A DNA stretch of 64,000 nucleotides, taken from sequence record OQ708376.1; one strand, written 5' to 3'. The notes beneath the pieces are model-generated. The model saw nothing but the letters and a program-made list of their open reading frames with translations. It was not told the DNA's origin and made no database searches. The translations under genes were made by a program, and so were the position numbers. How positions within the stretch are numbered: the first letter of the stretch is position 1; each line of letters begins with the position of its first letter. This DNA is from Escherichia phage vB_EcoM_CRJP21. Shown here piece after piece: positions 33,463 through 54,779 of the stretch.

Positions 33463-33490
33463 TTGACTAAATAGTTCAGTACTGTATAAT
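33463..33490 (+). promoter_or_regulatory. Sigma-70-type early promoter with CAGTACTG spacer palindrome
   Basis: TTGACT-AAATAGTTCAGTACTG-TATAAT-GTTT. Confidence 0.6.
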
Positions 33491-33521
33491 GTTTGTATCT
33501 TAACTTATATGGCAACTTGAT

Positions 33522-33875
33522 ATGTTTAGTGAATATGAAGAAGCAATAAAACGCAACCTTGAAGATTACAACTTCCAATTTTATATTTGGGATGAACTGA
33601 TGAGATTGTGTTTACAGTGGATGGAAAATGGAGAAACTCCTGACCAACGAACTGTTATATTAAACATTTTGTTACATAAAGATCTTAGTTCAATTAATGT
33701 TGAAGTTTCTACTTATGTAGAAGAAGATTATAATCCCTATATTTCATATACTTCACCTGTACCAAAGACAGAAGAAGAATATTTTCAAATGAGTACTGTA
33801 CAAGAACCATTGTTCACTTATGAGTTCTATAAGTACTTGGTTGGTGAATTCAAAAAAATGCGAATTAATTCTTGA
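33522..33875 (+). CDS. FFQxS-motif paralog family member
   Basis: Motif instance TEEEYFQMSTVQEPLFTYE. Confidence 0.55.
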   Translation: MFSEYEEAIKRNLEDYNFQFYIWDELMRLCLQWMENGETPDQRTVILNILLHKDLSSINVEVSTYVEEDYNPYISYTSPVPKTEEEYFQMSTVQEPLFTYEFYKYLVGEFKKMRINS

Positions 33876-33941
33876 CTAAATAATTCAGTACTGAGGATAT
33901 TAATATGTTTAAAGATGAACGTCCAGATTTGTAAAAGTACT

Positions 33942-33970
33942 TGACTAAATAGTTCAGTACTGATATAATT
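33942..33970 (+). promoter_or_regulatory. Sigma-70-type promoter driving the tRNA cluster
   Basis: TTGACT-AAATAGTTCAGTACTGA-TATAAT; predicted start immediately before tRNA-Ser(GCT). Confidence 0.6.
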
Positions 33971-33975
33971 AATTT

Positions 33976-34065
33976 AGTGAGTTGGATGAGTGGTTGAAAT
34001 CACTACCCTGCTAAGGTAGCATATGCGAAAGCGTATCGTGGGTTCGAATCCCACACTCACTGCCA
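33976..34065 (+). tRNA. tRNA-Ser (anticodon GCT)
   Basis: Acceptor AGTGAGT / ACTCACT; anticodon stem-loop CTACC-CTGCTAA-GGTAG; long variable arm; T-arm GTGGG-TTCGAAT-CCCAC; CCA encoded. Confidence 0.8.
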
Positions 34066-34069
34066 ATAC

Positions 34070-34148
34070 GGGCCATTAGCTCACGCGTGGTTAGAGCAAA
34101 CGACTCATAATCGTTCGGTACGGTGTTCGACTCACCGATGGCCCACCA
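34070..34148 (+). tRNA. tRNA with anticodon CAT (elongator Met, or Ile if lysidine-modified)
   Basis: Acceptor GGGCCAT / ATGGCCC; D-stem GCTC/GAGC; anticodon stem-loop AACGA-CTCATAA-TCGTT; T-arm CGGTG-TTCGACT-CACCG; CCA encoded. Confidence 0.8.
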
Positions 34149-34152
34149 ATTA

Positions 34153-34224
34153 GACTCTGTAGTTCAGCGGTAGAACGTCAAACTGTTAATTTGGTTGTCG
34201 GGGGTTCGAATCCCTCCAGAGTCG
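34153..34224 (+). tRNA. tRNA-Asn (anticodon GTT)
   Basis: Acceptor GACTCTG / CAGAGTC; D-stem GTTC/GAAC; anticodon stem-loop TCAAA-CTGTTAA-TTTGG; T-loop TTCGAAT; CCA not encoded. Confidence 0.8.
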
Positions 34225-34244
34225 CAAAACAATGCGAGGTATAA

Positions 34245-34502
34245 ATGGCATATTTCTTGATTCAAAGCGATGCAGATGATGAATTAATCGCAAAAACTAA
34301 AATTGACATTGCTGATTACCGAACAGTACTGGAAGCTATCCATTACTATGATGTTCGACACAAAGGTAATCGTGAACAAATTAAGAACTGGATTGAATCG
34401 GGTGAGTACAAGGTTGAATCTTTATCCATTTCAGGTGATGAATCTGAAGAAGATGGTTTTATTACTGAAACTATGTACTTAACTATTGAAAATCATTTCT
34501 AG
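34245..34502 (+). CDS. Hypothetical acidic protein (85 aa)
   Basis: ORF with RBS GCGAGGTA. Confidence 0.5.
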   Translation: MAYFLIQSDADDELIAKTKIDIADYRTVLEAIHYYDVRHKGNREQIKNWIESGEYKVESLSISGDESEEDGFITETMYLTIENHF

Positions 34503-52320: not shown

Positions 52321-52463
52321 ATAACAAAGAGTGGGAAGATTACCGCAAGAAGTGCAGGGAGTTTGATAAAGAACTTACTGGTACAGTGAATGCAGTAATG
52401 TGGGTATCTGTAATTATTGCAGTTCTTGCGTTGGGTGCTATTATTATTAATAAATTATTCTAA
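52317..52463 (+). CDS. Small membrane protein (48 aa), GTG start
   Basis: RBS TAGGAG 7 nt upstream of GTG; C-terminal TM helix VMWVSVIIAVLALGAIII; not in the ORF track. Confidence 0.3.
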   Translation: MNNKEWEDYRKKCREFDKELTGTVNAVMWVSVIIAVLALGAIIINKLF

Positions 52464-52473
52464 GGCGAATATC

Positions 52474-52674
52474 ATGTTTACTTTATATCTCGCAGTAGTT
52501 CTCACCAATGGTGAAATCACTCGTACTATTGGTGAAGGTGTATATAAAACACCAGACCAGTGCTACTCTGCCACTCATTGGCCTCGCGATAGTGGGGATG
52601 AAACTCGCACTGAATTCAAATGCATGAAAGTAAAAGGTGATTTTGTTAACCTTAAGGTTATCGAGGCGAAATAA
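52474..52674 (+). CDS. Small protein with hydrophobic N-terminus (66 aa)
   Basis: Track 52417..52674; start moved to ATG 52474 behind TAAGGCGAA. Confidence 0.45.
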   Translation: MFTLYLAVVLTNGEITRTIGEGVYKTPDQCYSATHWPRDSGDETRTEFKCMKVKGDFVNLKVIEAK

Positions 52675-53192
52675 TGGATATTAATGAGTTGTTGAAATTA
52701 GTGTTTAATCGTGAACGCCGCGATACAAGACCAATTGAATATCAAGATGTGATACGCATTGAAACTGATTTCTGTTATGGTAAAACAACTCATGACCTTT
52801 TGAATCTCTCTGGAAAACGCTATGCTGATGTTTGTTTTTCAGAGAGAAGTGATGGTTCAGAAATAACGAGTACTGATATTGTTTGTTACGCACGCAGTGC
52901 TGATAAATCTTATGAAATAGAACTTATATATTCCCCTAGTTCTAAAACAAATCATCACCGCCATATTTTATATGATGTTTACACACCACCTGGTATTGCT
53001 GAATATTTTGTTATTGATTATAGTACTGAAGAAAATGTGTTTCAACAAAGTTTGATTCATAACTTTGAGGTGAATGATCCATTAGTACCAAAGTTGTTCA
53101 AACTACTTGACACCATCGATGTTGATTTTGAATTTGTTATGTGCATTAGAACTTCTTTATTCAATGAATTCATGGAACTTTTTAATATATGA
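52674..53192 (+). CDS. FFQxS-motif paralog family member
   Basis: Motif instance TEENVFQQSLIHNFEVNDPL. Confidence 0.55.
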   Translation: MDINELLKLVFNRERRDTRPIEYQDVIRIETDFCYGKTTHDLLNLSGKRYADVCFSERSDGSEITSTDIVCYARSADKSYEIELIYSPSSKTNHHRHILYDVYTPPGIAEYFVIDYSTEENVFQQSLIHNFEVNDPLVPKLFKLLDTIDVDFEFVMCIRTSLFNEFMELFNI

Positions 53193-53410
53193 ATAGATAC
53201 TATGTTGTGTATGAACACGTCTCTGAATTTAATAACATACGCGGGTTTTCCAGAGTAGTCACCAAGATGGATGTATTCATTCGTGCTCTTAGTGAAGTAG
53301 ATGCACTGTTTAAATTGTTTGATGAAATTACAAAGTATAACACACCTAAAACACACCGCTATGTGGAAACTGTACATAGCATTATGCTAACTGAAAGTGA
53401 TGAGGAATGA
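53189..53410 (+). CDS. Hypothetical protein (73 aa)
   Basis: ORF overlapping the upstream stop. Confidence 0.45.
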   Translation: MNRYYVVYEHVSEFNNIRGFSRVVTKMDVFIRALSEVDALFKLFDEITKYNTPKTHRYVETVHSIMLTESDEE

Positions 53411-53413
53411 TAA

Positions 53414-53632
53414 ATGAATTTATATCTAGTTGAAGGTTTAGTACAAGTCTATAAACCAGAAGGTGAAGGTCAACGTTTTTCACACGTAGAAGAATTTAAG
53501 TACGTTGTACAGGCTGATGGTCAGTACGATGCGGAAATTCAAGTAGATGAATCATTCCGTAAGAAAAATGAAATTGGTAAATTTCAATACCAGAACTTAC
53601 AATATAAAGTATGGCCTAGTATAAATGACTAA
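53414..53632 (+). CDS. Hypothetical protein (72 aa)
   Basis: ORF 3 nt after the upstream stop. Confidence 0.45.
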   Translation: MNLYLVEGLVQVYKPEGEGQRFSHVEEFKYVVQADGQYDAEIQVDESFRKKNEIGKFQYQNLQYKVWPSIND

Positions 53633-53840
53633 GATGTGGTGGTGTCATGGTGTATATAACGTGTATGTAAATGGTAGATATAAAATGTCTAGTACCTATG
53701 CAAGACGTGTTAATGCGAACAACCAAGTTGATGCTGCTTGTGAGATCATTGAGTGGTATGCTGAGTTCAATGCACCTGACTATATGTACGAAATAGTTAC
53801 AATAAATGTTGTACAAATCGATACATCTTTGATACAATAA
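53625..53840 (+). CDS. Hypothetical protein (71 aa)
   Basis: ORF overlapping the upstream gene by 8 nt. Confidence 0.45.
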   Translation: MTKMWWCHGVYNVYVNGRYKMSSTYARRVNANNQVDAACEIIEWYAEFNAPDYMYEIVTINVVQIDTSLIQ

Positions 53841-53872
53841 CCACATCAAAAAAATTGCATCTGAGGATACTT

Positions 53873-54535
53873 ATGTTAGTTAATCTTAATTTCATCACTT
53901 CACCTGACTGGGCATTACGTGGAGTTTCTTTAAACTTCAAGGAAACTATGTTTGACTACATTGGTGAGTGTACATTGGTAAATGCAACTTTTGATCCAAA
54001 TCATCCGTTTTGGGCTGAAATTCATGATCCAAATGTAAACAACAATACATCTGTTATGACTATTGTCCAGACTAAACATGCAGGTATCCTTGCAGGTTAT
54101 CGACCTGCACATGCAATTGAACACTTCACTGATTACGATGTCGTGGATGAATACCCAATGATCCATGAAGATGGAAGTCTATACACATCTGAAGACTTCC
54201 GTGCTATCTTTAATAGTACTGATGATATTCTACCAAGTGGACGTCCACGTCCTGAGTCTTATCTTATGCATCCATCTTATGGTGTAGCAGATACGCTTGA
54301 ACAGATTATGAATAAGTACAAGAACCTAATTGAAGGTCCAGAAGAAATTGTCCTGTGCTATCACCCAGTACTGAAGTCTGAACAACCAAAGGATGGTGGA
54401 TGGCGTTGGCATAAGAATGGTGAGTATATCGGTACTAAACGAAGTAAAGAACGTTTTGAGTACTTGTATGATGAGCCAGATGTTGATGTGGTTTTGTGTT
54501 ATAATTTTATTAAGGTGAAAAAGAAATGTATCTAG
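53873..54535 (+). CDS. Hypothetical protein (about 220 aa)
   Basis: Track 53855..54535 begins at TTG; start moved to ATG 53873 behind TGAGGATA. Confidence 0.5.
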   Translation: MLVNLNFITSPDWALRGVSLNFKETMFDYIGECTLVNATFDPNHPFWAEIHDPNVNNNTSVMTIVQTKHAGILAGYRPAHAIEHFTDYDVVDEYPMIHEDGSLYTSEDFRAIFNSTDDILPSGRPRPESYLMHPSYGVADTLEQIMNKYKNLIEGPEEIVLCYHPVLKSEQPKDGGWRWHKNGEYIGTKRSKERFEYLYDEPDVDVVLCYNFIKVKKKCI

Positions 54536-54768
54536 TACTAAGTTTTGTTGTTGCACTATTGTTTATGTTCTATCCTACACTAGTGGCATTAGCCACTAGA
54601 CGAACGATGGTAGATCTCACTACTGTATTCTTGCTAAACGTGGCATTAGTACTGGTGTCTATTATCATTCCAGTGAGCTTTACAGTTATTGATATTATTT
54701 CGGTATTACTCTTCGTGTTAAGTTATCTTATGCTTATTGAAGAAACAAATGTTGACAAACGTTCGTAG
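54526..54768 (+). CDS. Small membrane protein (80 aa)
   Basis: Two TM helices (LVLSFVVALLFMFYPTLVALA, LLNVALVLVSIIIPVSFTVIDIISVLLFVL). Confidence 0.5.
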   Translation: MYLVLSFVVALLFMFYPTLVALATRRTMVDLTTVFLLNVALVLVSIIIPVSFTVIDIISVLLFVLSYLMLIEETNVDKRS

Positions 54769-54779
54769 TACTGTATAAT
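54752..54779 (+). promoter_or_regulatory. Sigma-70-type early promoter with GTACTG spacer motif
   Basis: TTGACA-AACGTTCGTAGTACTG-TATAAT-GGTT. Confidence 0.6.

Follow-up and report, generated by a model that had tools for sequence, protein, structure and literature searches.

Why should one short palindrome recur throughout the DNA of a virulent jumbo phage and also occupy fixed positions in its promoters? This question is raised by a 64,000-nucleotide stretch of Escherichia phage vB_EcoM_CRJP21 (sequence record OQ708376.1; hereafter, the window), in which a preliminary description had singled out the 8-mer palindrome CAGTACTG as over-represented and concentrated in promoter spacers. The window is DNA of an Asteriusvirus jumbo coliphage of the vB_EcoM_G17/PBECO4 type (i.e., the PBECO4/121Q/phAPEC6 group, with a genome of ~350 kb and 33% G+C), and it represents a piece of the early and replication region, with nearly all genes on the + strand. 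In a megablast search, positions 33000-38000 had matches of 80-99% identity in ~50 jumbo phages from Escherichia, Klebsiella, and Salmonella. Our analysis shows that the observation is real and that the pattern, whose unit is the hexamer AGTACT, reaches well beyond the promoters first described. We tentatively propose, with a probability of roughly 40%, that AGTACT is the recognition site of a putative phage-specified, two-fold symmetric DNA-binding protein that would mark or organize phage DNA and shut immediate-early promoters.

Over-representation in the window was evaluated against dinucleotide shuffles and against order-2 and order-3 Markov models, with ranking over all 4096 hexamers. The octamer CAGTACTG was found 26 times, compared to 0.68 copies expected from the shuffles or 1.7 from the order-2 model; the earlier count by eye (about 20 versus fewer than one expected) was therefore an understatement. 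Its core, AGTACT, occurs 157 times (2.45/kb), compared to 17.3 (shuffles), 30.5 (order-2 Markov), and 55.8 (order-3 Markov) expected sites, so that the excess in an exact count persists over a second-order expectation. With z = 22.9 under the Markov model, AGTACT is the rank 1 outlier among all hexamers of the window. The number of octamers is accounted for by the two 7-mers that compose it (28 expected, 26 observed), and the unit is therefore AGTACT, with C preferred before it and G after it. Indeed, C precedes 39% of the sites and G follows 45%. All positions reported at the outset proved correct, including those of the palindrome at 35160 and of the copies at 37085 and 37120, which lie beside and within a terminator-like hairpin.

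The flanks of the hexamer contribute in a graded manner. In a 439-kb pool, in which the window and its PBECO4 homologue are both counted, enrichment over expectation was 38-fold for CAGTACTG, 17-fold for CAGTACTA/TAGTACTG, 14-fold for AAGTACTG/CAGTACTT, 9-fold for CAGTACTC/GAGTACTG, 6.7-fold for AAGTACTT, 4-fold for TAGTACTA, and 1.2-fold for GAGTACTC, with G being the sole flank without enrichment. The best form was tCAGTACTGa, both in Asteriusvirus and in the phage RaK2. Graded flanks of this kind, which resemble a position weight matrix, are characteristic of dimeric binding proteins, in contrast to the strict sites of type II enzymes.

The excess is independent of coding. Within the window, 140 of the 157 AGTACT sites and 18 of the 26 octamers fall inside open reading frames (ORFs), with a density of 2.4/kb in coding and 3.0/kb in intergenic DNA. 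All three frames are occupied (61, 29, and 43 sites), and 17 sites are intergenic. Shuffling synonymous codons within genes yielded 36 ± 5 sites and shuffling codon order yielded 19 ± 4, as opposed to the 133 observed (z ~19-27 over both shuffles). In addition, 61 of the 102 Ser-Thr dipeptides are spelled AGTACT, compared to ~15 from codon usage alone; codon choice and protein sequence are therefore both bent toward making sites. Codon or codon-pair usage, which the preliminary description had itself raised as the explanation to be excluded, is thus rejected by the frame analysis, the intergenic sites, and both codon-aware shuffles.

Comparison of related genomes revealed that the sites are under purifying selection at the DNA level. 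The phages GAP32 and CBB, which are 83% identical in nucleotide sequence, have kept 69-71% of AGTACT sites intact, compared to 41.5% for all hexamers, which places AGTACT 5th among 567 hexamer classes in retention; between genera, retention is 32-50% against a background of 15-19%. Conservation does not extend beyond the hexamer itself, and 153 of the 157 window sites lie in unique 36-nt contexts, on which grounds we rejected a dispersed repeat, whether a repetitive extragenic palindromic (REP) element, a miniature inverted-repeat transposable element (MITE), or another mobile-element family. Third-codon positions are more conserved inside sites than elsewhere, at 0.87 vs 0.69 (P = 1e-8) in one comparison, 0.94 vs 0.81 (P = 3e-6) and 0.75 vs 0.61 (P = 5e-5) in two others, and 0.69 vs 0.61 (P = 0.02) in the weakest. 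First and second codon positions display no consistent excess, being lower inside sites in three comparisons and higher in one (fEgEco12/PBECO4, 0.95 vs 0.90). Since the sites are kept specifically at synonymous positions, selection acts on the DNA itself.

No single-mismatch neighbor of AGTACT is consistently depleted; the neighbors show a mild excess (1.1- to 3.9-fold), and AGTATT/AATACT have observed/expected ratios of 1.2-1.6 in four genomes. Given that these deamination products are not in deficit, a drive by very short patch (VSP)-type repair (Dcm/Vsr) is rejected. The spacing of sites is slightly more even than random in four of five independent samples, with a coefficient of variation (CV) of 0.80-0.87 compared to 0.99 ± 0.08; the window repeats the PBECO4 175-250 kb sample in these statistics. 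The exceptions are RaK2 (CV 0.97) and PBECO4 1-150 kb, which is over-dispersed (CV 1.53). At short range, pairs of sites 20-22 bp apart are enriched in non-redundant related sequence (19 vs 6.6 expected, P = 6e-5).

We defined strong promoters as those with at least 11 of 12 consensus matches to the -35 and -10 hexamers, and promoter offsets as the start of AGTACT relative to the start of the -35 hexamer. AGTACT occurs in 7 of the 54 sigma70-like sites of the window, and 26 of its 33 strong promoters are free of the hexamer in the promoter region. The position of the site is fixed: it stands at +15 in 4 of the 33 strong window promoters, in 12 of 60 in PBECO4 1-150 kb, and in 5 of 39 in PBECO4 175-250 kb, compared to an expectation of 0.1-0.2 per offset (0.08 for the 33 strong promoters of the window). 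This bears out the initial claim that the palindrome sits immediately upstream of the -10 box in several early promoters (33463, 33872, 33941, 50438, and 54752). The +15 offset is constant with both 16- and 17-nt spacers, and the site is therefore anchored to the -35 box; the nine bases between the two vary among promoters, which are therefore not simple duplicates. Frequently, a second AGTACT abuts the upstream edge of the -35 box (offsets -5 to -8), 20-22 bp or about two helical turns away, giving rise to the 20-22 bp class of pairs. In a third class, the hexamer lies over the 3' end of the -35 box at +5/+6 (TTGACAGTACT), and the +5 form seen at 50786 recurs in PBECO4, fEgEco12, and CBB. Overall, the three register classes (+15/+16, -5 to -8, and +5/+6) are shared by two genera, i.e., by the window, PBECO4, and fEgEco12 of Asteriusvirus and by CBB of Mimasvirus.

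Judging by layout, this geometry is that expected of the operator of a dimeric or tetrameric regulator. The operator for a dimeric regulator suggested in the preliminary description thus gains from the fixed register and from pairs about two turns apart in two genera; it cannot, on its own, explain the genome-wide excess. Given that ~90% of the sites are intragenic, lie in all frames, and have a similar density over 515 kb, a promoter operator alone is insufficient. For the same reason, a concentration of the palindrome in promoter spacers was not upheld (only ~5 sites abut a -10 box), even though its fixed promoter position is real. The features of the window and of its relatives are compiled in Table 1.

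Table 1. AGTACT sites, associated features, and counts in the window and in related phages
Feature	Source	Position	Strand	Details
AGTACT array	Window	1-64000	none	157 sites over the whole window, 26 as octamer CAGTACTG
CAGTACTG starts, first half	Window	6236, 8172, 10602, 16385, 18410, 19200, 22467, 22525, 24785, 31373, 31452, 33477, 33886
CAGTACTG starts, second half	Window	33955, 34324, 35163, 36140, 37085, 37120, 43248, 50452, 50790, 52256, 54366, 55862, 58032
Promoter TTGACT-N16-TATAAT	Window	33463-33490	+	Strong sigma70-like; AGTACT 33478-33483, offset +15, CAGTACTG abuts -10; precedes ORF 33522-33875; same promoter present in PBECO4
Paralogous promoter unit TTGACTAAATAATTCAGTACTG	Window	33872-33901	+	Degenerate -10 GATATT; AGTACT 33887-33892
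Double-site promoter	Window	33936-33969	+	AGTACT 33936-33941 overlaps first T of -35 TTGACT (33941); second AGTACT 33956-33961 in spacer before TGaTATAAT; sites 20 bp apart; predicted driver of tRNA-Ser/Met/Asn cluster 33976-34225
Consensus promoter TTGACA-N16-TATAAT	Window	50438-50465	+	AGTACT 50453-50458; CAGTACTG abuts -10
Promoter TTGACAGTACTG (first described as TTGACAGTACTGAAT)	Window	50786-50814	+	AGTACT 50791-50796 overlaps 3' end of -35, offset +5
Consensus promoter TTGACA-N16-TATAAT	Window	54752-54779	+	AGTACT 54767-54772; tAGTACTG (GTAGTACTG) abuts -10
Promoter-like TTGAAAGTACT...TATAAT	Window	61862-61890	+	AGTACT 61867-61872, offset +5
Intragenic AGTACT pair	Window	33405-33430	none	Sites 33405 and 33425, 20 bp apart
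Other AGTACT pairs, 19-22 bp	Window	17470/17492, 24303/24324, 52257/52278, 58011/58033, 63840/63859
Perfect 14-bp palindrome ATTCAGTACTGAAT	Window	35160-35173	none	Extended motif form; intergenic, tRNA region
Two CAGTACTG copies and hairpin	Window	37085-37161	+	Copies 37085-37092 (just upstream) and 37120-37127 (in loop); 10-bp hairpin, arms 37108-37117/37143-37152, then T-run
C5 cytosine DNA methyltransferase, 286 aa	Window	22049-22909	+	PF00145, E = 4e-38
AGTACT deserts	PBECO4	116608-124301, 126954-132598
AGTACT deserts	fEgEco12	22.5-25 kb, 30-37.5 kb
AGTACT count	PBECO4	all 225 kb examined		614 (61 expected)
AGTACT count	fEgEco12			191 (13 expected)
AGTACT count	RaK2 (Alcyoneusvirus)			114 (11 expected)
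AGTACT count	GAP32 (Mimasvirus)			114 (14 expected)
AGTACT count	CBB (Mimasvirus)			355 (29 expected)
AGTACT count	Serratia phage BF (Eneladusvirus)			120 (15 expected)

With regard to its distribution, AGTACT enrichment is a property of a clade. We examined 515 kb from four genera (Asteriusvirus, Alcyoneusvirus, Mimasvirus, and Eneladusvirus), taken as pieces of at least 50 kb from partial genomes, and found 1508 AGTACT sites compared to 143 expected and 256 copies of CAGTACTG compared to 6.3 expected. In each sample of the four genera, AGTACT ranks first among the hexamers. All four genera have hosts among the Enterobacterales, and at 2.3-2.9/kb over ~350 kb, we estimate at least 800 sites per genome. 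More distant relatives are not enriched: per 50 kb, the Pseudomonas phage PA5oct (Wroclawvirus) has 3 sites (14 expected) and the Agrobacterium phage Atu_ph07 (Polybotosvirus) also has 3 (6.7 expected). The unrelated coliphage PHB05 has none in positions 1-50000 (15 expected), and a 50-kb sample of E. coli K-12 has 3 (4.8 expected), i.e., ~40-fold fewer per kb than the window. The absence in PHB05 and the depletion in PA5oct suggest ScaI-type restriction pressure on other phages. Within the clade, Serratia phage BF contains only 3 copies of CAGTACTG among its 120 AGTACT sites; the C/G flank preference of Asteriusvirus and RaK2 is lineage-specific and could reflect co-evolution of a reader.

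The densest arrays are found at the genome ends. In fEgEco12, the termini and a direct terminal repeat of 20,993 bp have been confirmed experimentally (PMC13070987). This repeat holds 138 AGTACT sites (6.6/kb, 6 expected), and the hexamer occurs in 17 of its 21 strong promoters, with the +15/+16 register in 14 cases. For CBB, 143 sites (6.4/kb) were counted in the terminal repeat as annotated. A recurring CBB promoter has the form AAAGTACT-TTGACA-N10-AGTACT-t-TATAAT, with sites at -6 and +16 that are 22 bp apart. Next to the Asteriusvirus terminal repeat, on its inner side, there are AGTACT-free deserts of 5.6 and 7.7 kb, which still lack GCGC and share the other composition traits of the genome; CBB has no desert, with 4.4 sites/kb after its repeat. 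Deserts in DNA of otherwise typical composition speak for selection on particular regions and against a mutational process acting uniformly. The hexamer CCTAGG, rare elsewhere in PBECO4, clusters at the deserts, with two copies inside them and two between them.

Other features of the terminal repeats were also observed. The E. coli Chi sequence GCTGGTGG occurs in the fEgEco12 repeat (590-19625) 10 times on the + strand and 2 times on the - strand (0.2 expected), and 7 times in the CBB repeat (9311-21020), with a single copy in the window (48287). This clustering in one orientation looks like protection of the genome ends against RecBCD. In addition, an immediate-early ORF of 84 aa at positions 15303-15557 of the fEgEco12 repeat carries a domain resembling ParE toxins (E = 6e-11); this ORF is conserved in CBB (13908-14183).

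How might a single word serve both the whole genome and its promoters? At the genome level, 2-3 sites/kb, and more than 6/kb in the terminal repeat, would load the proposed protein preferentially onto phage DNA, such that the genome-wide sites might act as a sequence label of "self" or as a nucleoid-organizing array. At the promoter level, one site abuts the -10 box and often a second abuts the -35 box, two helical turns apart; cooperative binding there could occlude sigma70, and immediate-early promoters would be switched off as the protein accumulates. The palindrome, its graded flanks, the pairs bracketing the -35 box in two genera, the intragenic selection, and the site-free islands together fit a binding protein better than a strict-hexamer enzyme.

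Several points weigh against such a protein. A repressor with more than 800 intragenic sites would be unusual, and its effect on elongation lacks an explanation. The C/G flanks are not universal, as illustrated by phage BF and by CBB promoters that use aAGTACTt and gAGTACTt; only the hexamer is invariant, and because this invariant part is type II-like, an enzyme would suit it equally well. The helix-turn-helix protein that the preliminary description had envisaged as a cognate regulator did not come to light: Pfam and PHROGs scans revealed no helix-turn-helix (HTH) or ribbon-helix-helix (RHH) domain in the 122 window proteins, most of which have no detectable family, and neither domain turned up when 10 proteins of the terminal region, conserved in both fEgEco12 and CBB, were scanned against Pfam. 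The only hits of the regulator scans were the ParE-like domain and a sub-threshold HVO_A0114 match. Finally, the clade has conserved methyltransferases for both adenine and cytosine (PMC5259590), and the closest known analogue, the cyanobacterial highly iterated palindrome HIP1, tracks methyltransferases (PMC4390886).

The alternative that survives best, although we regard it as doubtful, is a HIP1-like mark, in which AGTACT would be the target of an orphan phage methyltransferase, most plausibly a small Dam-family N6-adenine enzyme or an unrecognized one. Packaged DNA would then be fully methylated, with site density being selected for protection or for discrimination between parental and progeny DNA, and marks at the -35 and -10 boxes would tune immediate-early promoters to fire on injected but not on newly replicated DNA. 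The invariant unit is indeed a 6-bp type II-like palindrome (the ScaI site), and the depletion of AGTACT in PHB05 and PA5oct suggests that the word is dangerous unless protected. Cyanobacterial HIPs are likewise selected, frame-independent, and conserved (PMC5861425), and they co-occur with methyltransferases that recognize their core, with the palindromes decaying mostly at their outer bases (PMC4390886); the outer C and G are variable here too. As for a writer, a PF05869 Dam-family N6-adenine methyltransferase lies beside a cytidylyltransferase gene in both PBECO4 and CBB (syntenic, 41% identity), and this small enzyme, a member of a huge family, is a possible candidate. CBB and GAP32 encode further adenine and cytosine methyltransferases (PMC5259590), and the "third methyltransferase" noted for phage Sharanji was not found among the neighboring PBECO4 ORFs.

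A methylation mark also faces difficulties. The only methyltransferase of the window, a C5 cytosine enzyme, matches the mammalian DNMT3A/B/C catalytic domain along its entire length (E = 2e-23; small target recognition domain, CpG-specific), better than it matches bacterial M.HhaI or M.HaeIII, and it is probably CpG-directed, with CpG methylation having been reported for RaK2 DNA (PMC3622015). It is 100% identical in vB_EcoM_G17 and has a 51% homologue in PHB05; homologues of ~51% identity are present in Justusliebigvirus coliphages. We therefore judge it unlikely that this enzyme writes AGTACT, as had been suggested at the outset, considering that it is DNMT3-like, that AGTACT contains no CpG, and that PHB05 has the homologue but zero sites. 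More generally, a strict hexamer enzyme explains neither the 30-fold flank gradient nor the 20-22 bp pairing, and methylation accounts for sites being tolerated, not for a ten-fold enrichment. GAATTC and other palindromes with two G/C occur at the expected frequency although they receive no special treatment, and the AGTATT/AATACT ratios give no sign of a VSP-type drive. A Mom-like modification (RaK2 ORF149, PF25680) was also rejected, since it is confined to RaK2-like Klebsiella phages, with no Escherichia, Cronobacter, or Pectobacterium phage among the matches listed. Furthermore, ten restriction enzymes gave the predicted digests of fEgEco12 DNA (PMC13070987), which indicates that there is no global base modification.

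AGTACT is not the only word with an unusual count in these genomes. The tetramer GCGC has no copy in the window (28 expected) or in the 515 kb sampled from the four AGTACT-enriched genera (337 expected). PA5oct, Atu_ph07, and PHB05 have it at the expected frequency, and E. coli has 342 copies per 50 kb (~7/kb), so that the absence of GCGC and the enrichment of AGTACT are found in exactly the same genomes. One possible cause is a GCGC-specific nuclease, encoded by the phage, that would break down host DNA. Moreover, 26 of the 64 palindromic hexamers are missing from the window, 23 of which have at most 3 copies each in 579 kb (7-72 expected), all with at least four G/C. The only four-G/C palindromes present in the window are GTGCAC, ACGCGT, CACGTG, TCGCGA, GACGTC, and CGATCG, the last of which, though in the window, is among the 23 rare words clade-wide (3 vs 32.7 expected). 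Two-G/C palindromes (GAATTC, GATATC) are at expectation. It is conceivable, although unlikely, that a two-word code replaces base modification in discriminating self from host, with AGTACT as a positive address and GCGC and GC-rich palindromes as negative tags. A phage protein would read AGTACT, which is densest at the first-entering terminal repeat, and thereby target phage DNA for protection, replication, transcription control, or packaging, and words of the GCGC type would allow a phage nuclease to break down host DNA only.

We consider it very unlikely that the phage gathers sites for a DNA-binding protein of its Enterobacterales hosts so as to titrate or recruit it. The four enriched genera infect Enterobacterales and their Pseudomonas and Agrobacterium relatives lack the signal; this host-range split follows phylogeny and is therefore not independent evidence. 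To our knowledge, the SlmA site is the only E. coli site with an AGTACT core. That site, GTGAGTACTCAC, requires G1, T2, a purine at position 3, A4, and G5 (PMC3020112). The phage prefers C over A over T, with G far behind, at position 3, and has G at position 1 in only ~15%, so that the flanks SlmA requires are those disfavored in the phage and SlmA was rejected. LexA was also rejected: the half-sites CAGTA/TACTG are present, but its spacing would need 18 bp instead of 20-22 bp. In any case, a host repressor on immediate-early promoters would hurt the phage.

Less probable still is a core-promoter element, in which AGTACTG would be read by RNA polymerase carrying sigma70 or a phage sigma factor, e.g., as an extended -10, with the intragenic copies being incidental or cryptic. 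Many Asteriusvirus copies do place TG beside the -10 box (AGTACTG-TATAAT, AGTACTGg-CATAAT), and the window encodes, amid its early region on the + strand (47089-48054), a sigma70-family factor in which regions 2, 3, and 4 were detected. The anchoring to the -35 box at +15 with 16- and 17-nt spacers opposes this idea, as do the second copy upstream of the -35 box, the 90% of copies without nearby promoter hexamers, and the site-free majority of strong window promoters. In CBB, the 3' flank is T and no TG is formed, so that the element is more than an extended -10, which was rejected. Least credible of all is that the excess has no function and arises as a side effect of codon-pair preferences, mutational or repair bias, or dispersed repeats: neighbors are mildly enriched as around any abundant word, but the excess extends to all frames and intergenic DNA, survives both codon-aware shuffles, comes in unique contexts with extra constraint at synonymous positions and no consistently depleted precursor, and is interrupted by deserts in typical phage DNA.

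Among known systems, AGTACT most resembles HIP1 (GCGATCGC) and the alternate cyanobacterial HIPs, which are also short palindromes in genome-wide excess, by one to two orders of magnitude, in all frames and in intergenic DNA. As in HIP1, the sites are conserved between related genomes, indicating selection and not neutral replenishment (PMC5861425), and the outer bases are more variable than the core, with orphan methyltransferases in the genome (PMC4390886). AGTACT thus combines an excess of at least 10-fold, occurrence in all frames and between genes, and conservation beyond background. Unlike HIP1, however, it is an AT-rich word, resides in virulent jumbo phages and not in their host, keeps a fixed register in promoters of the immediate-early class, and is packed most densely in the terminal repeat. 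The HIP1 study detected no involvement in gene regulation, and a long-range (10-90 kb) periodic distribution has been reported for HIP1.

In its promoter layer, AGTACT resembles the operators of LexA, of LacI/TetR-type regulators, and of lambda CI/Cro, i.e., a fixed palindrome over the -35 and -10 boxes with pairs at integral helical turns, here in promoters of differing sequence and with an architecture conserved in related genomes. Classical operators, however, number from a few to tens per genome and are intergenic, whereas AGTACT has at least 800 estimated sites, mostly intragenic; moreover, the LexA box CTG-N10-CAG does not fit the 20-22 bp spacing. The proteins p6 of phi29 and TF1 of SPO1 coat the phage genome and repress early promoters. 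They share the proposed dual role, but they recognize DNA shape or hydroxymethyluracil-containing DNA and not a palindromic word; the phi29 and SPO1 genomes are not known to carry an iterated hexamer, and no p6 or TF1 homologue was identified here. The ScaI site is the same 6-bp palindrome; a type II restriction target is normally avoided by phages, whereas AGTACT is ten-fold enriched, and this class was therefore rejected.

The window contains further features of interest. Seven tRNA genes (Gly, Ser, Arg, Ser, Met, Asn, and Thr) in a cluster at 32141-35808 are interleaved with duplicated AGTACT promoter units. A module that combines a terminator and a promoter, AGGTTGACTTCGGTCAGCCTTTT...TATAAT/TATACT, occurs twice (56522-56554 and 59948-59979), with the -35 TTGACT inside the terminator hairpin; the same module is terminator Torf39 in the supplement of the CBB paper and is therefore conserved across genera. 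Only one long gene runs on the minus strand (41138-42292, 384 aa; a virion structural protein according to the PBECO4 annotation), with a bidirectional terminator on one side (41108-41132) and a divergent promoter region on the other (42286-42381).

In full-text searches of the literature on these phages, we found no earlier report of AGTACT enrichment; it is unmentioned in the genome papers of RaK2, CBB, fEgEco12, and Sharanji, and the CBB promoter tables consulted do not show the AGTACT promoters. Collectively, the phenomenon is best regarded as a highly iterated palindrome carried by phages, together with a promoter architecture that resembles an operator. In cyanobacteria, such palindromes have been puzzling for ~thirty years, and a case in which virulent jumbo phages have one and their host does not is more tractable, with genomes of ~350 kb, synchronous infection, and immediate-early promoters as a read-out. 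AGTACT provides a new signature of the clade comprising Asteriusvirus, Alcyoneusvirus, Mimasvirus, and Eneladusvirus as well as a new immediate-early promoter architecture, and it implies that a putative sequence-specific reader or writer is encoded by one of the genes without an assigned function, which make up more than 80% of the total in these phages. The hexamer helps to predict early promoters and genome termini, its deserts flag foreign or specialized modules, and it is worth considering when these phages are engineered for therapy.

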